64,000 nt of DNA from a virus (lineage: Duplodnaviria; Caudoviricetes), in the IMG/VR virus record IMGVR_UViG_3300033075_001021; one strand, given 5' to 3'. A model generated the notes under the pieces. That model was not told the origin of the DNA, searched no databases, and saw nothing but the letters and a program-made list of their open reading frames with translations. Below, piece by piece: positions 38,038-64,000 of the stretch (the stretch's first letter is position 1; every line of letters begins with the position of its first letter). The position numbers were made by a program, and so were the translations under genes.

Positions 38038-38181
38038 GATTGATAAATTTAGAACACAAAAATAGTCTTATTTTCAATACCAACCAAAAATACCAGGCAC
38101 TTTTTTTATTTATTTTTGTTGTAGTTTTATTTGGTAGTTTGGGAAAATAGTCTTAACTTTGTTGCAACAAAATCAATCAAT

Positions 38182-38433
38182 ATGAGTAACAATTCTGTAC
38201 GTTCCCTTAGCGAGATTGCGAGGGAGATTCGTAAAGACTGGCCCGTTGCGTGGAATGAGAATCATCCAGCAGGTGCCTATCTTATTCCAATGAGTACATT
38301 GGATAAAGTAACTGACAACTATATCATGGACAGCGGCAAGAGCATCGTGATATATTTCCTGTCCAATGCTTCAGGCTGGCGTGGTGAAACTGCGAAGCGT
38401 ATCAAAGCTGAACTGAAAGCAATGATTAAGTAA
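38182..38433 (+). CDS. Hypothetical early protein
   Basis: Own + strand promoter and terminator; RSLSEIAREI...YFLSNA..WRGE.AK. Confidence 0.75.
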   Translation: MSNNSVRSLSEIAREIRKDWPVAWNENHPAGAYLIPMSTLDKVTDNYIMDSGKSIVIYFLSNASGWRGETAKRIKAELKAMIK

Positions 38434-38550
38434 TTAGGTTTCAGTGTAAATTCGGGGCTTCCATTTGGTTGCCCCTATTTTTATTGAATAAAAAAGTGAA
38501 GCGAGAAAAATCCCGCTTCGATATCATTTGATGTACACAAATGTGTACAG

Positions 38551-39262: not shown

Positions 39263-39352
39263 GATTGATTGATTTAGGACACAAAGATAAGGTTATTTTC
39301 TGAAATAACCAAAAAAAAGAGGCTGAAAATTCAGCCCCTTTTCCTAAATTTA

Positions 39353-39718
39353 TCAGTATTCGCAGGGTAGGAGAAGCACGTTATCAATGAACCATATTGT
39401 GGCTTCCTTGTAGGGGAAATCAGAATAGGGGATTGCTTGTTGTGTTACTTGGTTTTCGTTACCATCTTCGCAGGTCAGCAGGTAGGCATCGTTTTCGGTT
39501 TCTTTCAGTTGCCATACTTGGAAGCCTTCGAGTTTAACACTTGGGTCAACTTGGTGGCTCAAGATTGCATCGAGCAGCCAAAAGGCTTTGCACATTTCGG
39601 CGAGGTGTTTAACGCCGTCAGTCATTGTAACTTTGGGGAATAAGATTGAAACCCTATGCCATTGGTCAGTACCTCCAGCGTGTTGTGTGAGGTCTGTGTT
39701 TGCATTTTGTTTTTTCAT
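39353..39718 (-). CDS. DUF6876-like protein, copy 1
   Basis: TDGV..LAE...AFWLLDAI.S...FQVW.L...CEDGN...IPYSDFP...VLLLP.EY. Confidence 0.75.
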   Translation of the reverse strand: MKKQNANTDLTQHAGGTDQWHRVSILFPKVTMTDGVKHLAEMCKAFWLLDAILSHQVDPSVKLEGFQVWQLKETENDAYLLTCEDGNENQVTQQAIPYSDFPYKEATIWFIDNVLLLPCEY

Positions 39719-39769
39719 GATTGATTAATTTAGGATACAAAGATAAGGGTATTTTATGAATCCACCAAA

Positions 39770-40222
39770 TTAATCGTGGGTATAAATTACATTTTTTGGC
39801 GTAAAGTTGATGCAATTCAATTTTCTTTCAACATTAAAACAAAATCCCAATATGAGGTAGTCAATTTCAATTTTTGGATTAATTTTACCATACATCGTGT
39901 TCATCGTATCACCAGAACTGATAAAGTCATCAATGATGATATTGATTTCACCATTATCAACAAAACGTTTAAAATTATCACATTCTGAATGGCTCTTTTC
40001 ACCATCTTTTTTTACATGGAGTATGGTTACATTTTCTACAATACTAGCAAAGATTGCAGCCATGATTGCACCACTTGAACCCATACAAAAGACGTTTATT
40101 TTACCTTTGCACTGTTCTTTATTGAAGGCTTTGGCTAATTCTTGAATAACAGGAAGATTGTGGCTTATGTGCATTCCGACAGGATAATTAACTTCACCAC
40201 AATTAGCGTTAATTAATTTCAT
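39770..40222 (-). CDS. Type I phosphoribosyltransferase-like protein
   Basis: IIIDDFISSGDT PRPP-binding motif. Confidence 0.8.
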   Translation of the reverse strand: MKLINANCGEVNYPVGMHISHNLPVIQELAKAFNKEQCKGKINVFCMGSSGAIMAAIFASIVENVTILHVKKDGEKSHSECDNFKRFVDNGEINIIIDDFISSGDTMNTMYGKINPKIEIDYLILGFCFNVERKLNCINFTPKNVIYTHD

Positions 40223-40333
40223 GATTGATAAATTTAGGATGTAAAGATAAGGTTATTTTCTGAAATAAAAAAATCTTTTTTATTTGGTAGATACAAAAAA
40301 TAGTCCTATATTTGTATTCTAAACCTACAAGAT

Positions 40334-40456
40334 ATGAAATTCAGACATGCGGTTCTTTACTTTATTATTGCTGCGGCAATTCTGTGTTTAACTTCATGCG
40401 CTCGTAACGGTTACGGCTGTAAAGGGCGTGGGAAGATTATCACAAGGGTACGTTAA
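40334..40456 (+). CDS. 40-aa lipoprotein (not in ORF track)
   Basis: MKFRHAVLYFIIAAAILCLTSC-ARNGYGCKGRG; own promoter and terminator. Confidence 0.7.
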   Translation: MKFRHAVLYFIIAAAILCLTSCARNGYGCKGRGKIITRVR

Positions 40457-40545
40457 TGGTTGGTAATTTAGGAATATTGCAATCCTTCGGGATTGCTTTA
40501 TTTTTGATTTAATGAAATAAAAAAGGCCCTTTCGGGCCAGTTATT

Positions 40546-40692
40546 TTACCATTCATCCTCCCATTCGTCATCATCTTCTTCGTCATCACCCCATCCTCCA
40601 TTGTTCTCTTCATTCCATTCGGGAGCATCTGGTCGGTTGCAAGTTTCGAATCTTTCATCAAGTCCGAAATCTTCGTTAGGTTCGTGTGCCAT
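40546..40692 (-). CDS. 48-aa highly acidic peptide (not in ORF track)
   Basis: MAHEPNEDFGLDERFETCNRPDAPEWNEENNGGWGDDEEDDDEWEDEW; own promoter and terminator. Confidence 0.7.
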   Translation of the reverse strand: MAHEPNEDFGLDERFETCNRPDAPEWNEENNGGWGDDEEDDDEWEDEW

Positions 40693-40727
40693 GTTTTATT
40701 GATTTAGGACACAAAGATAAGGGTATT

Positions 40728-41202
40728 TTATGAATTAACCAAAATATTTTTGATGTTTTCTATTAATTTATTTTTGGTTTTTTGGAATAAAACCCTGTTT
40801 ACCCCGTTTTCAATTCGCCACAATGGATATTGACTTTTATTTACAAAAGCCCATCCATTTTGTTCAGTTGGTAGAGATTTAATAATGTAGCCAATATATT
40901 CACCATCATGATAAACATCAGTATGTGGATGCTCTTTCTCTGTTTCCCTTCGATTTTTAAACGTCAGCATGATTAATGATTTAGGACACAAAGATAAGTC
41001 TATTTTCCGAAAGTACCAAATTTATTTACAGATATTTGCAACGATTTAGCAGGTCTAAATATTCAGATTGTGTGCCGATAAAGTAGTATTTATCAACCTT
41101 TCTATCGGTACGTTGGTGCAGTTGGTTGCTACCAATAATTCCGTATATAGGTAGCAAATAATCGTATTGCTTTTTGGTTATTTGAAATGATTGTCCACGC
41201 AT
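40728..41202 (-). CDS. Two small hypothetical genes (40728..40970; 41026..41202)
   Basis: Each has its own promoter and leader. Confidence 0.6.
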
Positions 41203-41292
41203 AATTGATAAATTTAGATTGTAAAGATAAGGTTATTTTGGGATATAACCAAAAAAATGAGGGTGAAAATTCACCCCCATTTCCTAAATTTA

Positions 41293-41658
41293 TCAGTATT
41301 CGCAGGGTAGGAGAAGCACGTTATCAACCAACCAAATTGTGGCTTCCTCATAGGGGAAATCTGAATAAGGTATTTTTTGGCTTGTTACTTGGTTATTGTT
41401 GCCATCTTCGCAGGTCAGCAGGTAGGCATCATTTCCAGCGTGTTTAAGTTTCCAAACTTGAAAAGGTTGCTGCCTTACTTTGGTGTGTACTTGGTGGCTC
41501 AGGATTGCATCCAGCAGCCAAAAGGCTTTGCACATTTCGGCGAGGTGTTTAACGCCGTCTGTGATTGTATGCTTTGGAAATAGCGGTGAATATCTGTACC
41601 AGTTGTCAGTACCGCCAGCGTGTTGTGCGAGGTCGGTGTTTGCATTTTGTTTTTTCAT
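41293..41658 (-). CDS. DUF6876-like protein, copy 2
   Basis: Close paralog of 39353..39718, including flanks. Confidence 0.75.
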   Translation of the reverse strand: MKKQNANTDLAQHAGGTDNWYRYSPLFPKHTITDGVKHLAEMCKAFWLLDAILSHQVHTKVRQQPFQVWKLKHAGNDAYLLTCEDGNNNQVTSQKIPYSDFPYEEATIWLVDNVLLLPCEY

Positions 41659-41710
41659 GATTGATTAATTTAGGGTACAAAGATAAGGTTATTTTCTGAA
41701 TCTACCAAAT

Positions 41711-41941
41711 TTATTTTTTTCTATCTCGATAATCGTATTTCTTTACCATATCATCATAAACTTTTTCAGATATGCCACCGAAGCAGTAAGTATTACCATG
41801 TATTTCAACTTCGCACATATTAACGGATGCTTTCTCAATAGTGGTATTGTCGCCTTGTGGTATTAGTCTTAAATGAATGACTTTAAAGGCATCATATTTG
41901 AATTGTAGAAAGCCTTTAAGCTGCTTTTCGGAAACGTTCAT
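41711..41941 (-). CDS. Hypothetical protein
   Basis: 76 aa behind a structured leader. Confidence 0.6.
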   Translation of the reverse strand: MNVSEKQLKGFLQFKYDAFKVIHLRLIPQGDNTTIEKASVNMCEVEIHGNTYCFGGISEKVYDDMVKKYDYRDRKK

Positions 41942-41958
41942 AATTGATAAATTTAGAG

Positions 41959-42051
41959 TGTAATTGAAAGAGAGGCATTTATCTACTACGGTAACACTTA
42001 AGTTCGCTCCTTCGATATATTTACTCCTTTATCTCCTTCCCTTCAATTACA
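41959..42051 (-). ncRNA. Candidate structured 5' leader
   Basis: UGUAAUUGAAGGGA...UCUUUCAAUUACA closing stem starting at the predicted +1. Confidence 0.45.
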
Positions 42052-42094
42052 ATGCAAATATAAGACTACTTTTGCAATCTACCAAATTTATTTT

Positions 42095-42244
42095 TTATCT
42101 ACCACGATAACAGCCGTAACCAATCATTCTTTGTTGGTCGGGGCAACCGTTACCACGCTGAAGCGTTACGCATGATGAAAGCATCAAGCAAATAAGAATA
42201 AAGAAAGTTGCCAAAAAAAGCATTGTGTTAATAAAGCGTTTCAT
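42095..42244 (-). CDS. 49-aa lipoprotein (not in ORF track)
   Basis: ...ILICLMLSSC-VTLQRGNGCPDQQRMIGYGCYRGR; own promoter. Confidence 0.7.
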   Translation of the reverse strand: MKRFINTMLFLATFFILICLMLSSCVTLQRGNGCPDQQRMIGYGCYRGR

Positions 42245-42363
42245 AATTGATTAATTTAGGATTCAAAGATAAGAGTATTTTTGAAATAAAAAAATTTTTT
42301 TTACCTAAAAATAATCTTACATTTGCAGCAGTTCTTTATTTATCACCACTAAATTTATCAATT

Positions 42364-42615
42364 ATGCAAGTAACACCGATTCAAATTTTTGTGTTTACCC
42401 AATCTTTGGTTACTAAGATTAAAACGCCTTCAATGGAGTTGACAAGGGTTGCTCCTGGTTTTCGGAATGACTACAAAAAAGCAAGGGGTTTAGGTCGTAA
42501 CGCTGATGCTTTAACCGTATTAAAGGATGTCAGGAAGTTTTGCGAGGAAGTTGGTTGGATGAATGAATTTAATCGAGCAACCGAGGGGTATCCTGAAATC
42601 GTTGCACAACTGTAA
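42364..42615 (+). CDS. Hypothetical protein
   Basis: Start reassigned to MQVTPI; + strand promoter and terminator. Confidence 0.65.
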   Translation: MQVTPIQIFVFTQSLVTKIKTPSMELTRVAPGFRNDYKKARGLGRNADALTVLKDVRKFCEEVGWMNEFNRATEGYPEIVAQL

Positions 42616-42664
42616 TCATGGGGCTTCGGCCCCTTTTTTTATTTGTTATACACACAAAACTGTG

Positions 42665-42865
42665 CTACATTTGTACTGACCATCTGCGTATCAATCTTTC
42701 AAAAAGGAATAAGAGTTCGTTGTCAGGTAGTTCCGCAAAGTTTATATCTTTGAGGTGTTTCTTTTCTATACCATGTGTGAAGTTCTGCCAGCGCATTACT
42801 GATGTTGGAAAACCGTTTTCAGCTTTGCGTATTTCTTCAATGCGTTTCAGGATTAGTTCTCTCAT
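42665..42865 (-). CDS. Hypothetical protein
   Basis: 66 aa ORF. Confidence 0.55.
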   Translation of the reverse strand: MRELILKRIEEIRKAENGFPTSVMRWQNFTHGIEKKHLKDINFAELPDNELLFLFERLIRRWSVQM

Positions 42866-43039
42866 AAATTTGGAAGGCTTGGTTACCCTTCCGCACCGTT
42901 TGGCAGGTTGAAGCCCCTATCTCCACGCCATCCCTGTGGGATTACAGTGGCTGGTTGTTTTGAGGTTCACGGTTATGATAGGATTTTCACCGTAAACGTC
43001 AGCGCGTCTTTATGTACACAAATGTGTATATGTGTGGGC

Positions 43040-43177
43040 TTATCTGTACCCCACATAATTCTTTTTAACGTAAGTACATTCGGTTGTTCTGCAACTTGTT
43101 AGGTTTGCGATTAAAACGATTACCACCAATGCAATGATGCTAACCTTTAAGATTTTTTTTGCTTGTGCGTCTGTCAT
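43040..43177 (-). CDS. 45-aa lipoprotein (not in ORF track)
   Basis: ...IIALVVIVLIANLTSC-RTTECTYVKKNYVGYR; own promoter. Confidence 0.7.
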   Translation of the reverse strand: MTDAQAKKILKVSIIALVVIVLIANLTSCRTTECTYVKKNYVGYR

Positions 43178-43216
43178 GATTGATTTGTTTTAGAACACAA
43201 AGATAAGACTATCTTA

Positions 43217-43429
43217 TCAATATACCAAATTTATTTTGAAATATTCTTTGATTTCTTTTTCGGTTGCTTCTCTGATAATACTTCGGGGTGCCATTGGAAA
43301 GGCTCCATGTGCAGCATTTACAGAATCAAATAACCCCACTTCAACGTTATCCCATGCCGACCTTGCACCAACAACATAATATTTTTTGTTAGGTTTATAT
43401 ACCATACCTGTTTTTTCTGTTACTTTCAT
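43217..43429 (-). CDS. Hypothetical protein
   Basis: Own promoter. Confidence 0.6.
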   Translation of the reverse strand: MKVTEKTGMVYKPNKKYYVVGARSAWDNVEVGLFDSVNAAHGAFPMAPRSIIREATEKEIKEYFKINLVY

Positions 43430-43458
43430 ATTGATTGATTTAGAACACGAAGATAAGA

Positions 43459-43932
43459 CTATCTTACCAATATACCAAATTTATCTTTGAGTATTTTTCG
43501 TGCTGCTTTTTTGGCTTCAGTATCCAGCCATTCATTTACCCAATGCCTTGCCGTATTGGTGTGTAAATGTGCTTTAACGTGCCTAAGGGATACGTCCTTT
43601 ACTCCCAGCTGTTGGATGATGGATTGATAGGCTTTGTAGTTATCTTTGCCGTATTGAGGAAGGTTCTTGAATGTACCTTTGGTTTCAACCGTATCAATAA
43701 CCGTTTGGCTATCGGTATTGATATAGATTTCGGTGATTTCCCAATTTTGTTTTTTGAGTAGATGCAGGGCGTTGATTACAGCCTTAAATTCTGCATCGTG
43801 TGGTGTTTCCACATTTCCTTTGAAACCGTCAGCGTGTTTTACCCTACCTTTGTTTGAAGCTATCCAAATAGCATATCCACCTATCTTTTGCAAAGGGTAA
43901 AATGACGCATCGGTATTGATTGTTACCAGCAT
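43459..43932 (-). CDS. Ribonuclease HI-like protein
   Basis: INTDAS, AEF.AV..AL, INTDSQ, HVKAH, N...D..AK. Confidence 0.85.
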   Translation of the reverse strand: MLVTINTDASFYPLQKIGGYAIWIASNKGRVKHADGFKGNVETPHDAEFKAVINALHLLKKQNWEITEIYINTDSQTVIDTVETKGTFKNLPQYGKDNYKAYQSIIQQLGVKDVSLRHVKAHLHTNTARHWVNEWLDTEAKKAARKILKDKFGILVR

Positions 43933-43964
43933 CGTTTGATAATTAGACCACAAAGATACAACAA

Positions 43965-44610
43965 TTATTTCATATTACCAAATCCACCAATTTCTTTTTC
44001 CAATAATTTCCAGATTTCTTTTCTGATGAATTTAAAATAAATACCTGAATTAATCAATGCTTTTTTTGTTACAATAGCATAGGCATACTTCATGTTATCT
44101 TTATCACTATCATGTTTTACAATGGTTGCAAACCCCTTTAAAAACCCATTCACAAAGACCAAACATTGCGTTGTTTTAGCCCAAGTTTTACCATAATTAT
44201 TACGACTCTTTGGTTGACCAACCAAATATTGTAGTTTAACTTGAATTGACTCATCTTTAGTTGAATAATTGATTTCCATGATTGATTTGATTCAGGATAC
44301 AAAGATAAGGTTATTTTGGGAGATTATCAAATTTATCTTTATTGTTATTGTACCAATCTATGAAGTGATTTATGGCAACTATAACCGCTATTTTTTTTGT
44401 TTCCTCCCGAAAAAAAGATGAGTGAAATGAATCAGATATTTCGGGGTACGCCATTGCAAATTGATTGTTCATATTGATTTCACAACAATTGCCCCATATT
44501 TTAACACTGAAGCATGAAAAATCTTTTATCTGTGTCAAGTTGATGGATTCAATTTCATCAATGACTTTGTGAATCTTTATCCAGTTTGAAACAAATATTA
44601 ATTTTTCCAT
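43965..44610 (-). CDS. Two hypothetical genes (43965..44279; 44311..44610)
   Basis: Each has its own promoter. Confidence 0.6.
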
Positions 44611-44629
44611 GTTGTAAAGATAAGACTAT

Positions 44630-45145
44630 TTAATCAAATATCAAAATTAAATCCTCATTATTTTTGACAAAATAATCGGTAGGGTTAAATTGTTCAACCC
44701 AATGCTGATAAGGTAACAATCTTTCATCACCAAAAGATGGTACTTTATATCCGTTTAATGGTACATAATGAACGCTCTTTTGTCCGTCTTGTTTGTATCG
44801 GTTGAGAATTGACTTAATTTGTGTATCAGTAAAATGCTCCAATACACCATGTGTTACAACAATATCCACACATTGCTCACATGATTGAAATATGTCGCCA
44901 CGCCTTAATGATAGTTCAGGGTTATTCCGTTGGCAAAGATTAAGCATATCAGGACAAAGGTCGAAACCTGATACATTTACACCTTTCTTGATAAGATGTT
45001 TCGATATACTACCAATTCCAACACCTTCTTCCCTTACAGAATGTTTTGATGAAACAATTTCGAGGAGTTCTCCATACTTTTTTTCAAAGTAGTTTTGATA
45101 CGTGGAATTGATACGTGAACCGTAGAAGTTTGACCATCTGCTCAT
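44630..45145 (-). CDS. Class I SAM-dependent methyltransferase
   Basis: EEGVGIG, GFDL...ML, GDIF, HGVLEHF. Confidence 0.85.
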   Translation of the reverse strand: MSRWSNFYGSRINSTYQNYFEKKYGELLEIVSSKHSVREEGVGIGSISKHLIKKGVNVSGFDLCPDMLNLCQRNNPELSLRRGDIFQSCEQCVDIVVTHGVLEHFTDTQIKSILNRYKQDGQKSVHYVPLNGYKVPSFGDERLLPYQHWVEQFNPTDYFVKNNEDLILIFD

Positions 45146-45241
45146 ATTTGATTGATTTAGGACACAAATATAAGACTATTTATCTAAATAACCAAATAAA
45201 AAACCCACAAGTTATGGATTTTTTAATTTTTTTGTGACAGT

Positions 45242-45595
45242 TTAATTACCATTAACCTTAATAAGATTAATAATAAACAATGTGAGTAACCCTACAAATG
45301 CTCCAGAAATAACATAATATTTAACCCTTGCCTGAGTTGAATGGAATTCAGGCAGGCCGACAGGTGTTTGTTTGTTCAGATAGTTGTTCACCAATTTAGC
45401 GGTGGAATTTGTCGTTAGTGCAGAATAATTATCAAAATTAGCACCATTATCAGCGACCTGAATTGAATTTGAAATGGTTTCATGGTCGTTTACCACACTC
45501 TGTTCATTTTTAATCTCAGATTTATACGGAGATTGTGAAAATGCTGTGAACGAAAGGGTTAAAATTGTTACGAGAAACATAAATGCTTTTTTCAT
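45242..45595 (-). CDS. Exported protein with a C-terminal membrane anchor
   Basis: Signal peptide ...TAFSQ and a C-terminal hydrophobic helix. Confidence 0.65.
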   Translation of the reverse strand: MKKAFMFLVTILTLSFTAFSQSPYKSEIKNEQSVVNDHETISNSIQVADNGANFDNYSALTTNSTAKLVNNYLNKQTPVGLPEFHSTQARVKYYVISGAFVGLLTLFIINLIKVNGN

Positions 45596-45656
45596 GCGTT
45601 TGTTTTTAATATGTTAATTAATGCAAATATACGATTATTTTGTAAGAATAACAAAT

Positions 45657-47473
45657 TTATTTTTGTATTAATTCGGAAATACACATAACAACATTTTGTT
45701 TTTCTTGCAATTCTCTACGAGATAATTGCAATGCTGTATCAAGATAGTCTTGAACAAAATCAGACAATATGAATGATTTAATGTCTAATGTATATTCCAA
45801 ACATTCAAAAGCATCTTCAGCATTTTTAGTTTTGATGAAATTACCAACACCACCACGCCATATTGGTTGAGTTCCAGCAACAATACATTTACCATTGGTA
45901 AGAAGTTTTCTTGCAATGTTTTCAGCACCATTACAATCTATTGGAAACAGTTTGAGAAGAGTTTTTATTTGTGTTTCGTTAAGTATCATAACTCATTAAT
46001 TTAGATTGTAAAGATAAGACTATTTTCTGAATCTACCAAATTTATTTTACAGAAAAACCCCAACCATTTGGGTCGGGGTCTTCTGCTAAATTATCAATAC
46101 GAGCCTTACGCTTTTTGTTCTTTGATTACTTCGAGATTGTTCTTCTCAATAACGTGGTCAATGAGAAAGTTCATATCGGCTTCATCCACCACAAAGGTAT
46201 CGAGTTGTTTTTGGTTGAAACGTGCCATTTCTTTAACACACTTCTTTACCCCTGTAAAGCCAACATATCCAATTGATTGTGGCTTAATTTCAAGCGGTGA
46301 AACGCTAAGGTATAACCCACGCCTTTCATTGTCACCTGTAAAGTAATTCATACCACCCTTTGCGTAATAAAGTTCAACCCGAAGAGTGTTTGCCTTATTG
46401 TTGAGGATAGACATATCCTTAATAATTCGTTTTTGCATATCTGATTGATTTAGGATACAAAGATAAGACTATTTTATGAAAGCGCCAAATTTTTGGGTAA
46501 GATTATTTTTTTGAGTTTTTCCATTGTGGTCTTGAGGTCTTCCATATCCACACATACGCTTATACGGTCATGAGCTGGTATCCAAAGGAACGTATAGTTC
46601 CTTGTGATTACATACCCTGTTTCAGGCTTACCATTGTACCAATACAAGATTGGGTAGTAGGAATAGCCTAAGTCTTTGAAACCCGTCTTAATGAAGCTGA
46701 AAATGCATTTCATGGTCATGTGTTTTAGTGTGGTAAAGGAAACAACCACAACAATATTCCAAAGATTGCAAACCCAAATAACATACCCACAAAAAATGTG
46801 GCTGCGATTGATTCGTATTGTTTATTGTCTTTCATAACACAAAGATAAGACTATTTTCTGATTCTACCAAATTTATTTTTTACAAACTTTTAAAACATAT
46901 CCAATTTGCTCCAATTCATCTTTTAAGTTTTTATATTCATCGGGTGTGGCTATTGGTTGTTTTTTAGCCCATTCATTGGTACATGAAGAATGTTGCCCAA
47001 TGTGAGCATAACAAGTTACGATTGAATTACCAAGTAATAACCTGTTATATTTTAATTGAGGGAAAACAGCAATAACTTCATTGTAGTGTTGGTCTTTTAC
47101 AAAGCGAACCAATGTTGCCATAATCGTTTTATTTAGAATGTAAAGATAAGACTATTTTCTGAAACTACCAAATAGAAGCATACAAAAGTTCATACTTTGC
47201 TTCATAATCTTCACCATCCTGAACATAAGCGACTTTTATCTCCAACAAATATCCGTATTCAAATTCTTCCACGCTAAGAATTTTTACGTTCTCAACGTCC
47301 TGTTCGCTTTCAATGGCTTTGATTATTTTCTTTTCAAATTCCTCAACACTTTCAGTATGGGTGATAACGTTAGCATTTTTGCTATCAGCATTTTGCATGG
47401 TTAGTACACCAGCAGCCAATGGCTTACTAATTCTATTATTAAAAATGTTTAATTTACTTTGAATGATATTCAT
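45657..47473 (-). CDS. Run of small hypothetical genes (45657..45989; 46106..46438; 46474..~46719; 46725..46835; 46873..47121; 47165..47473)
   Basis: Promoter-headed cassettes; 46725..46835 is a 36-aa membrane peptide not in the ORF track. Confidence 0.6.
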
Positions 47474-47579
47474 AATTGATTTGTTTTAGGACACAAAGAT
47501 AAGACTATTTTCTGAAATAAAAAAATCTTTTTTTGAAAAATAAATTTGGTTGTTTCAGAATTTTGTTATACCTTTGTAT

Positions 47580-47707
47580 TGTCATCGAGATTAGACGGGA
47601 CGTATTCAGCAAAGTTTACGGGAGGTATACTCCAACTTACATGAAACTTTTTTTACGAGGGTTTAAATAAAAAGAATCCACACTTGGCCAGTGTGGATAA
47701 CTTTTTT
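47580..47707 (+). ncRNA. Candidate small RNA
   Basis: + strand promoter (TTTG..TACCTTTG), no ORF over 9 aa seen, ends in an ATCCACAC/GTGTGGAT hairpin and T-run. Confidence 0.45.
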
Positions 47708-47724
47708 TGGTCATTTCCCCCGAA

Positions 47725-49312
47725 TTAATTAACTTCGAGGGTTTCGCCATTGGCTTTGAAACTTGATGCTTCAGCTATAATGAATTGACGGAAACTACCT
47801 GTTTTCAGCAACTTGCGGAGTTCATCTTTAGCAACGGTCAGTGGGCGACTGTTTTTTACAGGATAGTTACCTTCAACGTGTACGGTCTTTTTTACGCGAT
47901 TGCCATACACATACAATACGCCTGTATCATTGTGTACCTTTACACCCTTGCAGATATGTGTGTAGGCATCGGCTTGGGCTTGGCTGCGAGTTTCATCAGG
48001 CTTGGTCAGGCTTTGGATAAGTTCGGCTTTGGCTTTTGCCATTGTAACCATGTCAGATTTCCATTGACCTTTAGTAAGGTCAAGTTCCTGAAGAAATTTG
48101 ATGTCGGCTTCTTTGGCTTTCATGTAGTCAGCACCAATGTTAAACACATGGTCGGCTACTTCGCCTTGTTGGTTGGTATAACCTTTGATGCTTACAAAGG
48201 AAACACCTGTGGGAGATTTATCAACGGCAGCTTTTGCCATGTTGATTACTTTTGCAGCTTTAGGAGAAACTACTACCATAATTACTTGTGTCATACGTTT
48301 AATGATTTTGTAATGTAAAGGTAAGGTTATTTTTGATACAAACCAAATTTATTTTTTCGGTTTATGCAAGTCAGTTGGTTTTAAGGTTTTCCTTATACCT
48401 TTAAGGTAGTTAAGCAAGGCTTGTTTACCTTTATCGCTTTTGCTAACAAAGATATATACCTCAATCGGTGAAAAATATTCATGCCTTTGGGCAACACTTT
48501 TTGGTTTACCATTTAACACGGAATTTGCAATAGGATTATTCGTTACATATTCAGGAACATTATATACCCTTTCGGCACATTGCACAATTAATTGATTGGC
48601 ACGTTCAGAAAAACAATCACCACACATTTGCCCATAAATACATTTTTCAATATGATTTGGGTCTAATTTGTTTAGGTCAACACACAAATTATCCAATTCT
48701 TGTTTGGTTGCCTCTTTTTTTAATTTGGTTGCTTCTTTAACAACCAATTCAGCGAGGGTAATATTAACCTTTGCCATACGTTTAATGATTTTGTAATGTA
48801 AAGGTAAGATTATTTTATGAATCCACCAAAACTTTTTTCAGAAACTTTTTATTTTCTTTCCTATCGTATGCTTTCTTATTTTTATGCACACGATTATAGG
48901 ATACACGACCAGCTTCCAATTCAAGTTGGCGATTCACTTTCCTTAAAAGTTTATCTTGTATGTCCTTATTCAGTTTCATGTTGCAAAGATAAGAGTATTT
49001 TTGCAAACAACCAAATTAAATTTCGGATAATTCAGCGATACCGTTCTGAATGGTTTTGAATGTTTTGGTATTCACACCTTCAATGATTTTTTTGAGGCGG
49101 TCAAACCGTACCTTGTAATTATCACGGTTGTTTTTGGGGTTGGTAATAACAGCACCCAATTTGCGTTGAAGCTCCAGCATGTTAGCTGTCTTTTTGCTGG
49201 TTTCAATGGTACTGTGCAATTCAATACCCTTTTCACCTTTGAGGATAACGATACGATTCCTGTCAGAATCAGCGATTGAAATGCTTTTCGGCGTTGTAGT
49301 GATTGTGAGCAT
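47725..49312 (-). CDS. Four hypothetical genes (47725..48294; 48349..48777; 48815..48979; 49016..49312)
   Basis: Each has its own promoter. Confidence 0.65.
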
Positions 49313-49460
49313 ATTGATTTGATTTTGTTAGAACAAAGATAAGACTATTTTCTGAATCCACCAAATTTATTTTTGGTCTATGCACACAAATGTGTACAAG
49401 GGTATAAGATAATGGGCCCTAGTTACCTAGAGCCCTTACCTAACCAATACAAAACCAAAA

Positions 49461-49934
49461 TTATGCGCTGTGTCTGTCAGTATATTTGAGTGTCTTGCGA
49501 AGTTTCCATGGTAAATGACTTTGACAACGACAGGAGTATGTTGTTAACCTATCAGGACGCTTTACCCTTTGATGCTCCTTACCACAACCCTCACAGTTGG
49601 CAACATACCTCATTTGCGGTGTGTTGGTCTCACTGGTCTTATAGCAGCGTTCAGGCTTTGCACCAATTTCACGGCATTTAGCTTTCCAAACGTGGTTGTG
49701 TCCATGTCCACGACCTACCAATGCATGGGCTATTTCATGTAGAATGGTATCCTTAACAGGTGCTACCTCATTCAAGGCAGCGAGATGTTGAGATATACTG
49801 ATTATTTTTTCGCGATGATTACATAACCCGAAACGTCTTACGGCGTTATCCAATTCAAACCGCCAGCCCATTGAAATTAAACCATGTTCAGCCATTAACT
49901 GATTTCCAAGTGAAAGAACGTCTGATAGTTGCAT
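49461..49934 (-). CDS. SprT-like zinc metalloprotease
   Basis: RRFGLC, TILHEIAHAL..GHGH..WK, CEGC. Confidence 0.88.
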   Translation of the reverse strand: MQLSDVLSLGNQLMAEHGLISMGWRFELDNAVRRFGLCNHREKIISISQHLAALNEVAPVKDTILHEIAHALVGRGHGHNHVWKAKCREIGAKPERCYKTSETNTPQMRYVANCEGCGKEHQRVKRPDRLTTYSCRCQSHLPWKLRKTLKYTDRHSA

Positions 49935-50074
49935 ATTTGATTGATTTAGGACACAAAGATAAGACTATTTTTAATACAAACCAAATTTATTTTTATCTTT
50001 GTCATAACCAAAACAAAAGCCCCACCTTAGCAGCGGGGCCTTGTCCTAAATCAAGACAATAGACAATACAGAGT

Positions 50075-50353
50075 TTAATTGACGTCATGATATCCACGTC
50101 TTTTGGCTTGCACCATATGCTTAGGGTACCCGCCATTAGGATATCCATATTTTATAAAGTCTTTTCCCTTAATGGGTGCTCTTGTTTCGAAATCTTGTAC
50201 TACCTTTCCATCCTCAACACGTATTGACCCAGCCACATAATGTTTATCCGTATGGTTCCCGCTCGTAAAACCCATGAACTTACGGTTCTTCCATTTACGA
50301 CGTGTTTTTTCAGCGTATTGCTTTCCTTTAAATGTTCTTAATGTCTTACTCAT
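50075..50353 (-). CDS. Basic hypothetical protein
   Basis: 92 aa ORF. Confidence 0.6.
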   Translation of the reverse strand: MSKTLRTFKGKQYAEKTRRKWKNRKFMGFTSGNHTDKHYVAGSIRVEDGKVVQDFETRAPIKGKDFIKYGYPNGGYPKHMVQAKRRGYHDVN

Positions 50354-50404
50354 GATTAATATTTAGTTTAAGTACTCACGTGTACACAATTGTGTGTATA
50401 CATG

Positions 50405-50512
50405 TTACTTGATTGGTATCGATTTATCGATATCAGCGTCGCTTAGGGCGCTCGTGGCATTCATCTTAAGATACCTTCGCTCACCATCCTTAGGGTGTGA
50501 CCTATGTCTGAA
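50405..50512 (-). pseudogene. Displaced 3' end of 51250..51537
   Basis: FRHRSHPKDGERRYLKMNATSALSDADIDKSIPIK* versus FRHRNHPTDNQLKNLSVNAIGIITDDDIEKVIPVK* (ungapped, same length). Confidence 0.85.
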
Positions 50513-50606
50513 CAAAGATAACATTATTTTTCCAAATCACCAAAATAATTTAGTCATAGTGCGCATACTTTTTATAAGTACGTGATATTTAATTAAAAAG
50601 ACTATT

Positions 50607-51266
50607 ATGCCACACAAAGACAAAGAACAAAAACGCCAATATGATATTGAATATCGTAAACGTAATGCTGAGAAAATCAAACAACGTAAACAATCCCCAG
50701 AGTATCTTGAAAAGAAACGTCAACGGGATAAAGAATATGCTGCTAAAACCAAAGAACAAAAACGCCAATATGATGCCGAGTATCGTAAACGTAACACTGA
50801 GGAAAAACGATTACGTGATAAACAATACTATGAAGCCAATAAAGAACGTATTAAAGAACAAGCTAAAGTATATCGTAAAAGCAATCGAAACAAAATTAAT
50901 CAGTACCACTCTGAGCGTAAAAAGAATGACCCGTTGTATCGATTAACTCTTGCAACACGTGCTTTAATAAACTCTTCACTTAGAAGAAAGGGGTATACCA
51001 AAAAATCAAAAACATTTCAGATATTGGGTTGTTCTTATAATGAATTTAAACAATATCTCGAAAAACAATTTGAGCCTTGGATGAACTGGGATAATTATGG
51101 TTTGTACAATGGTACTGAAAATTATGGTTGGGATATTGACCATATCATCCCATTAAAAACGGCAAAGACTGAAGAAGGTGTTCTAAAACTGTGTCATTAC
51201 AGTAACCTCCAACCTTTATGTAGTTATTATAATCGAGATATTAAAAAAGCTACTTTACAGGAATAA
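50607..51266 (+). CDS. HNH/EndoVII-like homing endonuclease with a repetitive basic N-terminus
   Basis: KEQKRQYD.EYRKRN repeats; LGCS...YLEKQF...WDNYG...WDIDHIIPL...HYSNLQPL. Confidence 0.8.
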   Translation: MPHKDKEQKRQYDIEYRKRNAEKIKQRKQSPEYLEKKRQRDKEYAAKTKEQKRQYDAEYRKRNTEEKRLRDKQYYEANKERIKEQAKVYRKSNRNKINQYHSERKKNDPLYRLTLATRALINSSLRRKGYTKKSKTFQILGCSYNEFKQYLEKQFEPWMNWDNYGLYNGTENYGWDIDHIIPLKTAKTEEGVLKLCHYSNLQPLCSYYNRDIKKATLQE

Positions 51267-51761
51267 CCTTTTCAATATCGTCATCTGTTATTATACCAAT
51301 AGCATTGACCGACAAATTTTTAAGTTGGTTATCAGTTGGGTGATTTCTATGGCGAAAAGAATGAATTGTGACGCCTTTATGGCCACGGAATGACCCCATA
51401 TATTGCCAAGCTTCACCATTGTCTTCATTAAGCGCTACCATGGGTTCCGTTAGGCCTTCATTGAGCGGGTGCTTAGCAAGCCATTCCCACATTTTTTTCC
51501 ATTCGTTCGAATCAGTTTTGATTAGTACGTATTCCATTATGCAAATGTATGGTCAATTACGCACAAAGTCAAGGACTTTTGATTTAACAACGTCTGATGA
51601 ATGTAATTTCGCCAAGCGCTGAAAGATAACGGTTTCATTTCTGAATCCACAGTGGTTACCGTTTCAGGGACGGAATCATTAAATTGGTCAAGCTTTGTCC
51701 GCTGTACCATTACTTTACCCAAATGTGCATGGTTGATACGGAATGTGTCAAATACTGGCAT
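51250..51761 (-). CDS. Two hypothetical genes (51250..51537, the endonuclease target; 51537..51761)
   Basis: ORF track plus promoters. Confidence 0.65.
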
Positions 51762-51818
51762 TGTCTTTTGATTTAGAATGTAAAGATAAGATTATTTTTT
51801 GAAAGTGCCAAATTTATT

Positions 51819-52220
51819 TTATAATTCCTTCCACATATATCCGACACCTTTAAACGTTTGAATATTGGGAACATTGATTCTCGAACGTATTTTTCGAATG
51901 TGCACATCTATAGTACGGTCACCAACAATGATATCATTACCCCAAATGATACTCATGATAGAATTTCTGCGCATTACTTTGTTTTTATTGGACATCAAGT
52001 AATACAACAGCTCGAATTCTTTACGTGGAAACACGTGGTTAACACCATCATATGTTACATGAAATCTTTCAGGGTCGAGAGTCACACCATCACTTTCAAT
52101 TACAGGAAGCTTATTAAGACCTGAGGCATTTTTTACCAATTCAATGATTTCCTCCTTGGTGAAGACGGTTTTATCGATATCAAGAATTTCATTGATAATG
52201 TTATTAGCAATTGCTATCAT
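51819..52220 (-). CDS. OmpR/PhoB-type winged-helix DNA-binding protein lacking a receiver domain
   Basis: PRKEFELLYYL.....V..R..I...IWG....VGDRTIDVHIRKIR.....I.T..GVGY. Confidence 0.9.
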   Translation of the reverse strand: MIAIANNIINEILDIDKTVFTKEEIIELVKNASGLNKLPVIESDGVTLDPERFHVTYDGVNHVFPRKEFELLYYLMSNKNKVMRRNSIMSIIWGNDIIVGDRTIDVHIRKIRSRINVPNIQTFKGVGYMWKEL

Positions 52221-52253
52221 ATGTTTGATTTTGAATGTAAAGTTAAGGTTAAT

Positions 52254-54022
52254 TTAAACCCAATCCAAAACTAAATTGGAAGAATTTTGTAACATCCAAT
52301 CGATTATATAATCTTTTGGTACGGTGCTTTTAATGTCATTGACATATCGATACCCTTCAATGTCATCGAGCCAAAATTTACCATTCATATTGTGATACCA
52401 TTCAGGTAATTTTTTATTCTTTGTGTCATAAACACAACAAGAAATTTTAATCAAGTTAGCCCTTTCCACTTTTTTAAGATGCTTCATTGCTTCATGCATC
52501 AGGGTTATCTTGCTGGTCATAACACCCTCATCTAATGGGGTTTTTATGAACACTTGTTCCCTGTCATGGAAAGTATAAATCATTTCAAGTACCATAATAT
52601 TTGATTTTGAATGTAAAGTTAAGGTTAATTTTTGAATCTACCAAATAAAAAAAGAGCTATCTTTCGATAGCCCCTTTTTCTATAATCAATCAATCATGCA
52701 CTAATGGTTTGAATCGCTTTTGCTGGTCTTCAGGAAGATAAGCGATGAGATTTTCTTCAGGTACAAACCTTAACAGCTCGAATATTGCCGATACGTCTCC
52801 AGCCTCAATATCTTTCTTTATCTGCACAATAGCAGTATCAATCAGGTCGTCTTCATGCATACGCTTTTGAAGACGTTCAATAGCATCTTTATCTTCAGTA
52901 TTCATATATTTAATTTGTTGACAATTAACAATAGTAAATGGAAGTGCCATGAAAAGTATAAGTGGAAGTAGCACAAACCAATCACCCACAATAAAATATT
53001 TTATGATAAATTGTTTGATGCGTTTCATGATACAAAGATAAGGGTATTTTCTGAATCTACCAAATTATAATGTAACAAGTTGGCAATAATCATCCAAATC
53101 AATCAATGGTATTCTACCATAATTCGCGGATGAATAATACCCTTGTTGTTCATAACGCTTCTTCCATTCCCTGTATGCTGCAAGGGCTTTCTTCTTTGAT
53201 GAATAGGTATCTGTTGGATGAATACTAAACCCATCGGGGGAAAGCACATCATATTTTACTTTTGCCATGATACAAAGATAAGGTTATTTTCTGAAACTAC
53301 CAAGAAATTACTTGAATTCTTTTTCCGTCACTTCCTTCCCATTCGGTTTTCACACCGTTGGCATTGAGAATGTCACAGATTTCCTGTGCATCACCAGCCC
53401 ATGCCAAATGAAATGGTTTTCCCTTTACCTTATCCTCATTGTCTTGACCATGATAGAATACAGCCTTTTCAGCTTGTTTATCAGTCATTGCTGCCCAGCC
53501 GCATGATTGGCAACACCAAAAGTTTTGTTTGGCAAAATAACCAGCTTTGCGTAAAGCCCTGAATGCTTTGTTGAGATTTGCGTTATTCATGATTGATTAA
53601 TTTTGTAACACAAAGATAAGGTTATTTTCTTAAACCACCAAATATTTTTATACTTTGGTGATAAGTTGTTTTTCAACCTTTGTGATATCTCCACCAGCGC
53701 CCCATTGCCAAAAACCTGACAAATGCACTGCGTGTTTAATAACGTCTTCCAGCTTACCCTCAAAGTAACCCAAAAGTGGTTGATGATGATGCCCACCCAT
53801 ATCACAGTTAGGGTCTTCACCTCTTACTTCCCACAAACCCACTTCATCCAGCGTGTGTTTTTTTAACAATCGCTGTCCACCGTAACGCTGAAGAAAGTTA
53901 TTTACCTTATCGTCTTCATGAAGACGGTGCATATCTTCTTTGAGCTTTTCTTTTCTCTTTTCCAGCTCTTTGATTTGCTGGTCAATTTTTTTGATTTCGG
54001 CGGGAATATTTGCTTTGTCCAT
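52254..54022 (-). CDS. Five small genes (52254..52595; 52690..53028; 53065..53268; 53297..53590 DUF6891-like; 53648..54022)
   Basis: Each has its own promoter; AF..L...G..A.QNFWCCQSCG in 53297..53590. Confidence 0.65.
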
Positions 54023-54082
54023 GATTGATTGATTTTATAATGCAAATATAAGACTATTTTCTGAAAGTACCAAAAAAAATTT

Positions 54083-54194
54083 GGGGTGCGATGGGAACCA
54101 CTTCAACCTGAATGTACCTTTCAGATTTATTCCTTGCTCCACATACATATTACGTAATTCTGTATGCTTCTGCTTGGAAGGTTCCCCGCACCCC
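54083..54194 (-). ncRNA. Structured RNA motif B, copy 1
   Basis: Three-way junction with compensatory changes versus the copy at 55874. Confidence 0.75.
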
Positions 54195-54206
54195 TTAACA
54201 AGGTTT

Positions 54207-54349
54207 GGGAATTCGGTGGACGGGCGAGTTTAACTTCAAACTTTTAATCAAACCCGCCTCCGCAGCAAGGCTGTTCACGTGCGCTTATAACGTTATTATC
54301 ACACGCCCCCTATCACGTACTACTCAACTATGAGCGTCCCCGAATCCCC
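54207..54349 (-). ncRNA. Multibranch structured RNA A1
   Basis: GGGGAUUCGG-GGACG/CGUCC-A-CCGAAUUCCC closing stem; 13-bp GGCGGGUUUGAUU/AGUUAAACUCGCC arm. Confidence 0.6.
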
Positions 54350-54357
54350 TAATATGT

Positions 54358-54663
54358 TTACCAGAATAATGATGTTCTTAACTTCACCTTGCTCACAATC
54401 CATTTGGTAATTTCATCAGCCCAATAACTTGTGGAAAGGTCGCAAAGGAAATCAGCCAGTTCACGTTGAACATTCTCTGCATCAGCGTTGAATGTCTTAC
54501 GGGTAAATTCCTTTGCATTGCTTTGGTTACTGCTCCGTCTTGAGCCAGTGGAGAAATCCCACTCTTTCCCAATAACGGTAATTTGTTTGTCTTTCACTTC
54601 AACGGTGATAACGCCACCTTGTGCTACTTCACCTAATTTCCATGTTTTAGTTGCCTTTGCCAT
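54358..54663 (-). CDS. 101-aa RNA-cassette-associated protein, copy 1
   Basis: Paralog of 56193..56498 (MAK.TKTWKLGE). Confidence 0.75.
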   Translation of the reverse strand: MAKATKTWKLGEVAQGGVITVEVKDKQITVIGKEWDFSTGSRRSSNQSNAKEFTRKTFNADAENVQRELADFLCDLSTSYWADEITKWIVSKVKLRTSLFW

Positions 54664-54754
54664 GATTGATTAATTTTGTACCACAAAGATAAGGTTAATT
54701 TTTGAATCCACCAAATAAAAAAGAGCTATTTTTCGATAGCCCCTTTATAATCAA

Positions 54755-55829
54755 TCATGCACGGAGTTCTTTATACACCCCCCATTTTTCTTCAGGGAGG
54801 TACTGGATGAGTTGTTCTGTTGGGCAATTACTCAATAATTCCCATATCGCCGATACATCTCCAACCTCAATATCACGTTTGATTTCCTCGATAACGGTAT
54901 CGATTAAATCATCCTCCAATTGTCGGCGGGATTCAATCTCATCACAGTGACAGCCAAAACCATCTACTGCTGGACAATCAGGGTCATGTTGTAATTCGTT
55001 TTCCATAATACTTTAAACTTTAACAAGCTGGCAATAATCCGCTAAGTCTTCTAACGGAATTCTGCCGTAATTTGTGGATGAATAATAACCCTGCCTTTCA
55101 AATCCTTTCTTCCATTTCTCGAAAGCGGCAATGGCTTTTTTCTTTGAGGAATATGTGTCTGAGATGTGGATGCTAAACCCATCGGGGGAAAGTACATCAT
55201 ATTTTACTCTTGGCATTGTTATTCTTCTTTAAAGGTGATACCTTCTTGACGTAAAACGCCCATCAGGAATAATTCTCTTGTGTCATTGGTATAAATACCT
55301 TTCCATGTATAAACACCGTTACCCATGTATCGAGCATACTTTTCAAAATTGGATTGATATTTCTTCTCCAATTTCTCACGTTCTGCTTTGGTTTTACCCA
55401 AACGACTTTCAAGATATTTGATTCTGTCATTCATGATACAAAGATAAGACTATTTTTTGAAACTACCAAATGTTTTTAGGTTGATAACCATATTAAGAAA
55501 TCTGATAGTTCGCAATTCTTTTTTGGAAAAATTGTTGTTCTCCATGAAGAATTTTTCCACTTTTTAATCCCCCTCAACCCACAAAAAGTTCTCCACTTAT
55601 CTTTTATCCATTCATCATTAGTGTTTTGAGTTATATCATGTAATTCAATATGATAATAGTGTCTTAATGAAACTGCTGAGTCATACCAAGCAATTGAATA
55701 CAGACCTAAATTTCCATGCTCTGATTTATCATTGATATCACGAATCATGAAAATATTATTGTGGGTCGACTTTGTTTCAATAGCAATACCTCTTGATGGG
55801 AATTCAAACCTTTTTTTAATGATTTCCAT
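54755..55829 (-). CDS. Four small genes (54755..55006; 55013..55216; 55219..55434; 55476..55829)
   Basis: First two are paralogs of 52690..53028 (C-terminal half) and 53065..53268. Confidence 0.65.
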
Positions 55830-61793: not shown

Positions 61794-63396
61794 TTACAAA
61801 TCTAACTCACCCTTCATCTTTGCTTCAGCATCCTTAACACCGAAAAAACCAAACATAAGATACCAATTAGCGTCATGACCTTCAGGATATGGATTGGATA
61901 TGTCTTGAGGGTTCATTAAGATGGTCTGCTCACAAATATCATGCATGTCAAATATCTTGGGGATAAACCCTATCCTCCCTTCCGTAGGTGGATTGCTTAT
62001 CAACTCTTGGGGTTTGTATTCAGGCTTGTATATCTCAATCGCAATAACCTTATCACCCCAATCCAAAAAAACTTTACGTCCTACTAAAGTATTCATACAT
62101 TTATGTTTTAGAATACAAAGATAAGACTATTTTTTGAATCTACCAACTAAATTAATTCACCAGTCATTAAATTTCTACCTAAAAATGCACCGCTATCTTC
62201 ACGGGAAACACTGATTGTTTCAGTCCATCCTTCAGCATCATCAGGAACAATACCACCAGTATTAGCTTGATGAATAAGCGTATTTAAAAGTGTTTCAACA
62301 ATATCATCTTTTTGTCTTTCAGTTAAATTACTTGAAAATGTAAGTTTAACCTGATAAGTTGCTTCCATGTTTTTAATTTTAGAATGTAAAGATAAGACTA
62401 TTTTCTGAATCTACCAAATAAAAAAAAAGGATACTTTCGCATCCCTTTTTGCTGTGGTTTAATTTAATAGGACACTAACCCTATTGTATAGCTTTCATTT
62501 GGTAGTGAATTAGAGGTTAAACTCAAAAATGAAAATAAAAACAATTCATACCTACCAAAAAAATTATTTAATGGTAGATATGAATGTTTTGATAAGTTAT
62601 TGAAAATCAATTAGTTATCAGTCCCACACTCTTGTGATTGTTCCATCAAAAGGTGAAAATTCAACTTGTTTGCCCATTACCCAATTCCCAGCATCAACGG
62701 TAAGGGTTTTGTGTTCAGCAAAAGAGCCATCAGGCTGTTCGTGTTTCAGTTCACCATTCTTGGTAACAACAATGTTTGAGAAATCCCTCTCTTGGGTTTC
62801 AACCTGAATGTTACCATGAAGAACGTGCTGGTTTGCACCTTCACCACGAAGGATAATGTGTTTGGTTGTCTTTGTCATGTTTTTAGCCATAGTTAAAATG
62901 TTTTAGAATACAAAGATACGATTATTTTCTGAAAAAGCAAATTTATTTTTATTGATAATTTGGTAACTTACATAACCTTCACATATTCGTAACTTGCACA
63001 AATATTATCCAGTACCAACAGCTCATCAATTACTTCAGGTGTGTTGGCCGTTCTTACTGTTTCGGTTATATCACCCAGTATAGCTGCAAAGACATCACCA
63101 AAAAATATTGGTTCATTGAATGTACTTGAAGTATCTTCATATAATTCTCGACCATTCAGCTCACGCTGAACCGCTGGTGACAATTCTTTCTTGGAAAGGT
63201 TGATGATACTGTCTTTGGATATGGTATAATTCTTTCCATGCTTCTCAATCTTCCCGCCAAACATCTTGGCTTTCTTCAGAGCTTCACCACGAGTGTAAAT
63301 CCCCAGCTCATTAGGAAATGAAGCCAAATATCCATTGATTACTTGGTCAGATTTAGCTGTATGACCTTCATTGAGCTTTACTTTGTAGAGTTGCAT
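61794..63396 (-). CDS. Four small genes (61794..62096; 62147..62368; 62618..62890 His-containing beta-rich protein; 62968..63396)
   Basis: Each has its own promoter. Confidence 0.65.
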
Positions 63397-63873: not shown

Positions 63874-64000
63874 GGGGTAAATTTTAGTCATCAAACAAAT
63901 GCTTGTATTTTTCTGCAAATTCTTTTGCTCTTTTGTGGTGCTTTAGCATTTTGCAGTACCTCATTACGGTTCTTATATTACCTTGATTTTTTGAAAGATA

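Follow-up and report, generated by a model that had tools for sequence, protein, structure and literature searches.

The 64,000-nucleotide (nt) stretch of phage DNA analysed here (the window, to which all positions refer; IMG/VR virus record IMGVR_UViG_3300033075_001021) raises the question of why several early transcripts carry, directly ahead of their terminator hairpins, a short box that is the reverse complement of the leader shared by the early genes. The boxes were found to be real, non-random and locally constrained. They belong to the early-gene array of an uncultured giant phage of Bacteroidota, roughly 289 kb in size; a protein look-up located one array protein, 100% identical, on a 289-kb contig. 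The tentatively favoured explanation, with a probability of about 0.4, is that the boxes would act as RNA anti-leaders that pair with the consensus leader, either within one messenger RNA (mRNA; 5'-3' pairing) or from 3' end fragments, and thereby damp early translation.

Anti-leader boxes ahead of terminators

Strong boxes were found on the minus strand at five of 18 terminators (39.3, 41.3, 50.0, 52.7 and 54.7 kb), each comprising 13-15 nt of perfect reverse complement to the leader and lying 0-8 nt from the terminator hairpin. Two classes were recognised, one complementing the 5' core of the leader (CTAAAT..ATCAA) and the other its 3' half, including the start codon. The terminators were predicted independently of the boxes, with 18 accepted as real, and the best duplex of each terminator-upstream segment with any leader was compared with those of 150 shuffles of the same segment. 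The five strong sites each beat all 150 shuffles, with z-scores (z) of -4.2 to -5.5, and fell in the lowest 0.03-0.8% of 3,320 segments drawn from the array (p = 0.0003-0.008). The enrichment over chance that the first-pass annotation of this sequence put forward for testing was borne out; that the boxes directly precede terminators and match leaders nearby also holds.

The array itself is a dense minus-strand run of small genes between approximately 37 and 63.5 kb, nearly each with its own promoter. A shared leader of 15-19 nt, already suggested by the first-pass annotation, follows about 40 of the roughly 55 promoters, its conserved parts being CTAAAT and ATCAATC, the latter just ahead of the ATG. 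About nine promoters are leaderless and, since the gap between their -7 box and the ATG is exactly 4 nt, transcription probably starts at the fifth nt past the -7 box. The features on which the analysis rests are the following.

36990-63450, minus strand: early-promoter array, about 55 promoters of the Bacteroidota type (-33 TTTG, about 19 nt, -7 TAnnTTTG).
39307-39341, minus strand: intrinsic terminator hairpin and T-run, the latter entering the -33 element of the next promoter.
39342-39355, minus strand: 14-nt anti-leader box holding the TGA stop of the DUF6876 gene 39353-39718 (z = -4.9).
40220-40241, minus strand: leader and ATG of gene 39770-40222, the best match for both the 39.3-kb and the 41.3-kb box.
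40457-40473, plus strand: anti-leader-like box after the micro-lipoprotein gene 40334-40456 and ahead of the terminator 40479-40496.
41254-41281, minus strand: terminator hairpin whose stem differs from that of the 39.3-kb copy by a compensatory change.
41282-41295, minus strand: 14-nt anti-leader box, paralogous copy of the 39.3-kb box, after the DUF6876 gene 41293-41658 (z = -5.3).
46081-46098, minus strand: 18-nt box, an imperfect leader complement (z = -2.0), ahead of the terminator 46054-46080.
49932-49953, minus strand: leader and ATG of the SprT-like gene 49461-49934, a perfect complement, over 13 nt, of the box that lies 100 nt upstream.
50012-50041, minus strand: terminator hairpin, its stem conserved and its loop diverged in relatives.
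50042-50059, minus strand: anti-leader box (z = -5.2) with a 14-nt core invariant in three genomes.
52647-52680, minus strand: terminator hairpin, paralogous to 54719-54746 (family D6).
52684-52698, minus strand: second-class anti-leader box, complementing the leader 3' half and AUG (z = -5.5).
54719-54746, minus strand: predicted terminator hairpin.
54747-54759, minus strand: second-class box, paralogue of the 52684 box and one 4-nt repeat unit shorter (z = -4.2).

The sites 39342-39355, 41282-41295, 50042-50054 and 52684-52698 read exactly as first reported, and the site reported as 54749-54759 is real, with a true extent that reaches 54747, giving 13 nt. The sequence at 46086-46098 is ATTGATAATTTAG and not the one originally quoted, and it proved to be a weak complement in this window (z = -2.0). 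The plus-strand site 40457-40473 was found to be significant (z = -3.7), its duplex including two G-U pairs and one bulge; a predicted energy of -19.2 kcal/mol was obtained with minus-strand leaders, and the opposite-strand equivalent reached only -12.5 kcal/mol. The original list therefore survives as five strong sites and one plus-strand site, fewer and less independent than it had implied.

The 52684 box holds the TGA stop of gene 52690-53028 and the 54747 box that of gene 54755-55006, in a frame that differs from that of its paralogue. The stops of minus-strand genes ending between 36.5 and 64 kb are strongly skewed to TAA, many of which overlap the A/T-rich stretch before a -33 element. 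Four real TGA stops were tabulated: three fall within anti-leader boxes, and the fourth, at 62618, precedes a weak box-like match of 10 nt by 7 nt; the TGA at 54755, outside that table, likewise lies within a box.

The leader match was confined to the antisense orientation. Among terminator-upstream matches of at least 13 nt, five were antisense, none sense, none reversed and one complement-only, a strictness that favours RNA pairing because pairing requires this orientation and a DNA-binding site does not. Across the 27.5-kb array, eight antisense exact matches of at least 13 nt were counted, five of them directly ahead of terminator hairpins; of the other three, two (38.17 and 42.35 kb) are true leaders of genes on the plus strand and one falls within an open reading frame of that strand. 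The candidates 42349-42366 and 38169-38184, being real leaders of plus-strand genes, were dropped from the count of boxes. The weak segments at terminators 49435, 40549 and 63516 appeared significant against coding segments but not against their own shuffles, and were treated as composition effects.

The 39342 and 41282 boxes follow DUF6876 paralogues, and the 52684 and 54749 boxes follow the paralogous last genes of an old tandem duplication, so that the strong sites, with the 50.0-kb box as a singleton, represent three independent events, to which two weaker ones are added. These three strong and two weaker events far exceed chance. A chance origin in AT-rich, low-complexity 3' ends was judged very improbable, given the shuffle scores of -4 to -5.5, the p values against array segments and the conservation of the boxes in relatives, even though the leader holds an AATC repeat and a palindromic core, a complement-only control matched over 13 nt and paralogy inflates the count.

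Conservation of the boxes and the cassettes that carry them

Metagenomic relatives were recovered by promoter-pattern scans combined with protein look-ups, a looser promoter pattern yielding arrays in G002 and other contigs; no close relatives were returned by megablast of the phage database, and no relatives of DUF6876 were found in IMG/VR. The relative L126 is syntenic with the window, at a synonymous-site identity of 0.58-0.74, and keeps the box at three orthologous terminators. The 50.0-kb box is identical in L126 at 17 of 17 positions and the 46.08-kb box at 18 of 18 (z = -3.8 there), with differences in the 7-nt post-stop spacer and in the hairpin loop of the latter, and the micro-lipoprotein gene of L126 is followed by a slightly changed box in the same 3' position. 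When the window was aligned with L126 and L134, the longest invariant stretch of the 50.0-kb module proved to be the 14-nt box core, which exceeds the -33 and -7 elements in length. Similarly, the 14-nt box after DUF6876 is identical in L131 and L132, and the boxes of the tandem duplicates share 14 identical nt, with genes that show a synonymous identity of 0.42-0.59 and reach TGA in different frames. The retention of boxes while spacers and loops differ argues for constraint and against a simple relic.

The first-pass annotation had held that its proposal would fall if relatives revealed the boxes to be relics of inverted cassettes. In L126, L131, L132 and L134, the box instead remains at 3' ends of genes on the same strand, and neither an intact nor a decaying inverted cassette was found at the box positions of the relatives compared. 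The micro-lipoprotein cassette (promoter, 40-codon lipobox gene, box and terminator) is itself inverted between the window (40283-40540, plus strand) and L126 (9283-9460), and its box remains at the sense 3' end in both. The boxes were also considered as leaders of opposite-strand genes, a candidate that was rejected, the plus-strand frames having just 2 and 17 codons and no promoter. The last 77 nt of the window (63924-64000) are identical to the start of contig IMGVR_UViG_3300033075_000969 (C969; L098 1-77), which is probably a neighbouring contig of the same phage on which the array would continue.

Composites of a terminator and an early promoter are repeated across small, variable genes, with about 55 promoters in 27 kb, and at 39.3, 41.3, 52.6 and 54.7 kb the T-run of the terminator runs straight into the next -33 element. 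In a contig (L125) with 95% identity over 800 nt, all similarity ends exactly behind the ATG at 40222 (40220-40222 of the window), from which it follows that gene bodies are exchanged and that the promoter-leader serves as the joint for recombination. Whole units between promoters are missing from L114 and L117, and the tandem duplication is bounded by promoters. The boxes are an extra part of some of the terminator-promoter-leader cassettes that form the recombination joints of the array.

According to the abstracts of two papers on T4-type phages (PMC2839356, PMC4122927), promoter-early stem-loop (PeSL) cassettes mark the joints of insertion, deletion and replacement between relatives. The present cassettes resemble them, as far as these abstracts describe them, in being small terminator-plus-early-promoter units repeated through a hyperplastic small-gene region, and in that indel and replacement joints coincide with cassettes (the L125 break, the units missing from L114 and L117, and the bounds of the duplication) (PMC2839356, PMC4122927). 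They differ in that their promoters are of the Bacteroidota type (TTTG/TAnnTTTG) and not sigma-70, and in that the modules include a conserved leader, some of them also an upstream box that makes up an inverted repeat with a leader; no such inverted repeat is mentioned in the abstracts of the PeSL papers (PMC2839356, PMC4122927).

Partners of the boxes and the explanations weighed

The energies predicted for leader-box duplexes ranged from -13 to -20 kcal/mol. The sequence pattern, its statistics and its conservation are what is shown, and every mechanistic step is inferred. In the favoured mechanism, each transcript that ends at such a terminator would carry the box at its 3' end, beside a protective hairpin, and the box would pair with leader RNA and hide the unstructured, A-rich initiation region. 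Pairing would take place intramolecularly (5'-3' closure), with a preference for the leader of the own unit that matches best, and also in trans, once 3' end fragments outlast the mRNA bodies. Translation of the leadered early genes would then be self-limiting, and leaderless genes would escape. Translation initiation in Bacteroidota depends on unstructured A-rich leaders; this host phylum is not known to have Shine-Dalgarno-based initiation or Hfq. The further step, by which accumulating 3' ends or self-closing mRNAs would form a collective post-transcriptional timer that shuts off the leadered early genes and spares the leaderless ones, is considered unlikely, although it would be consistent with the pattern.

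Enterobacterial small RNAs derived from 3' untranslated regions (UTRs), such as CpxQ and SroC, carry a seed just upstream of their own terminator, are freed by mRNA decay and act on the initiation regions of other mRNAs. The boxes resemble these RNAs in offering a conserved single-stranded seed 0-8 nt from their own terminator, with a 14-nt core that is invariant in three genomes. Unlike those of CpxQ and SroC, the targets here would be the early genes of the phage itself, collectively, and the 3' fragment is putative. On reading the sequence immediately upstream of the boxes, no motif of an internal promoter was noticed, no dedicated scan having been made.

Pairing between the 5' and 3' UTRs of a single bacterial mRNA has been described for icaR of Staphylococcus aureus (PMC3868564) and hbs of Bacillus subtilis (PMC5737220). 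The likeness lies in a short motif in the 3' UTR that is complementary to the transcript's own initiation region or 5' end, and in an effect on translation and decay, which is predicted here (PMC3868564, PMC5737220). Unlike in these mRNAs, the target is a leader without a Shine-Dalgarno sequence that is shared by about 40 phage genes, so that one box can match many, and the box, known here from its sequence, abuts the terminator hairpin and often holds the stop codon. The best partner of three boxes lies in the same transcription unit. The 39342 box is fully complementary to the leader at 40226-40239 (ATG 40222; predicted energy, -17.4 kcal/mol), its unique best match among 40 leaders; the 54749 box (54747-54759) has its unique best match, 13/13, in the leader of ATG 56498; and the 52684 box matches the leader of ATG 54022 at 15/15, tied for best. 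For the 50042 and 46086 boxes, no own-unit partner of the icaR or hbs type was found. The first-pass annotation had assigned partners to three units, each being the leader of the first gene of the same transcript (40222, 14/14; 42244, 13/14; 54022, 15/15); the matches are correct, although the standing of 54022 as first promoter in its unit is uncertain. On the whole, the partner data agree better with a box aimed at the consensus leader than with a box tied to one partner.

Several observations weigh against an anti-leader role. Compensatory covariation, as expected of the compensating arms of icaR- or hbs-type pairing, was not seen: in L126 and L134 the box is unchanged but the next leader is altered and retains approximately 6-9 complementary nt; L131 and L132 are uninformative in this respect because both arms are unchanged. 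The strand asymmetry of G-U pairs is inconsistent, favourable at two sites and reversed at two, and was accordingly dropped as a sign of RNA-level selection. The conserved block runs approximately 5 nt past the complementary part. The box is present at only about one third of the terminators, and the window holds only three independent strong events. The leader, with its AATC repeat and its palindromic core of 8 nt, has low complexity, and a match of 13 nt also arose once among the controls. Among relatives, the box is absent at the orthologous terminators of L133, after DUF6876 in L126 and upstream of the SprT-like gene in L137, L138 and L140, is degenerate in L127, and is rare or absent in the more distant arrays (G002 and other contigs); C969, whose leaders are of other types, has no box (best z = -2.3). 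Both box and terminator are lacking at the L087 homologue of the 52.7-kb gene, and boxes occur only where the canonical leader dominates. The original proposal of 5'-3' pairing or 3'-derived antisense RNA thus keeps the support of enrichment, orientation and plausible predicted energetics, and is weakened by the many orthologous terminators that lack the box and by the missing covariation with a specific leader.

The rival that survives best, although it too is considered unlikely, is that the boxes are functionless inverted leader fragments left by cassette recombination or inversion, which would persist as cassettes are exchanged between phages more recently than the surrounding genes. Such an origin would agree with the cassette joints, which lie exactly at leaders and promoters (the L125 break, the missing units of L114 and L117, and the duplication bounds), and with the plus-strand cassettes that bear the same promoter and leader at 38.1, 40.3 and 42.3 kb, one of them inverted relative to L126. 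The variable presence of the box at orthologous terminators and the location of rare TGA stops inside boxes also fit. Leaving a leader fragment at these positions would nevertheless need a promoter to be precisely replaced by a hairpin, and no relative has an intact inverted cassette at any box position. Fragments in the sense orientation were not found, and the invariance of the box, in modules whose loops and spacers have diverged, argues against simple recent exchange.

It is somewhat less probable that the box is constrained by a function other than leader pairing, for example as a site for an RNA- or DNA-binding protein, of phage or host, that also recognises the leader region, or as an upstream extension that improves the action of the terminator or makes it bidirectional. 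The excess of the conserved block over the complementary bases, the pairing of the 3' bases of several boxes with the T-run in predicted extended hairpins and the lack of covariation between box and leaders all point in this direction. A terminator extension, however, needs no perfect complementarity of 13-15 nt to nearby leader variants, strict antisense orientation is unexpected for a duplex-DNA site, and two unrelated classes of box complement different halves of the leader.

Lower still in probability, and regarded as quite improbable, is a read-through insulator or processing stem, in which the box and the next leader form an inverted repeat that flanks the terminator and promoter. This stem would form solely in read-through RNA, hiding the next leader or offering a double-strand cleavage site, and would leave expression of the downstream gene to its own promoter alone. 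The logic is comparable to the sib retroregulation of phage lambda, in which a stem completed only in terminator read-through RNA alters the fate of that RNA. As in lambda sib, the stem of box and next leader is predicted to be completed only in read-through RNA; unlike in lambda sib, the following gene supplies the second arm through its leader, the effect would be on translation downstream and not on decay upstream, and relatives show no covariation of the two arms. When the six modules were folded as read-through RNA, each paired its box with the next leader in both the minimum-energy and the centroid structures, with z values of -3.7 to -7.1. At 50.0 kb, the next leader downstream (49941-49953) is a perfect partner over 13 nt, as are three other leaders; the 50042 match takes in the 4 nt that separate the -7 box from the inferred start, and those bases would therefore be transcribed only in read-through RNA. 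The next leader also matches at 12/13 at 54749 and 12/14 at 41282, and in L131 and L132 it is a perfect 14/14 partner, through a variant found in only about 15% of leaders. Against this, the next leader ranks only 28th among 40 at 52684, 39th at 46086 and 10th at 39342, L126 and L134 keep the box even though the next leader has changed, and the distance between the arms varies from 76 to 101 nt. A DNA-looping operator pair with a fixed spacing between box and next leader was rejected on its distances of 76, 76, 86 and 101 nt. As for how anti-leader RNA would act, the data do not distinguish 5'-3' closure, action in trans and pairing in read-through RNA.

Other features of the array and biological meaning

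The proteins encoded in the window include ClpB-like, PcfJ-like and DUF6876 proteins. A sigma-70 promoter scan of the window returned sites no more numerous than in shuffles, no Rfam family reached its gathering score within 36-64 kb, and no transfer RNA was found in the window. A conserved stretch just upstream of the -33 element (AAATAAATTTGG) is close to being the reverse complement of the TTTATCA-type leader, shifted by one base, so that each promoter is loosely flanked by an inverted repeat. Gene 50075-50353 has a leader-like sequence ahead of its ATG and no promoter, with a GTGTACAC-type hairpin in the promoter's place (50355-50405). A palindromic hairpin, TGTACAC-4 nt-GTGTACA, recurs between array genes (38532-38549, about 43013, 49392, 50380-50401 and 63461), in some cases within or next to a terminator or immediately ahead of a leader, and also in L126 (about 10370), G002 and C969; it may be a processing or protein-binding site. 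In C1261, C6103, C969 and G002 (e.g., L087 and L042), the spacer between the -33 and -7 elements of some promoters holds a perfect hairpin of the form TTTGGGG-ATAT-loop-ATAT-CCC, followed by the -7 box, and such hairpins were called terminators by the terminator finder.

Should the boxes prove to be only recombination by-products, they would still mark how the cassettes are built and moved. If the anti-leader reading is true, pairing between 3' UTRs and leaders would constitute a collective control over dozens of phage genes and an example of such control in Bacteroidota, in which post-transcriptional control is less well characterised, and the terminator-promoter cassettes by which genes are shuffled in large phages would gain a further level of regulation.

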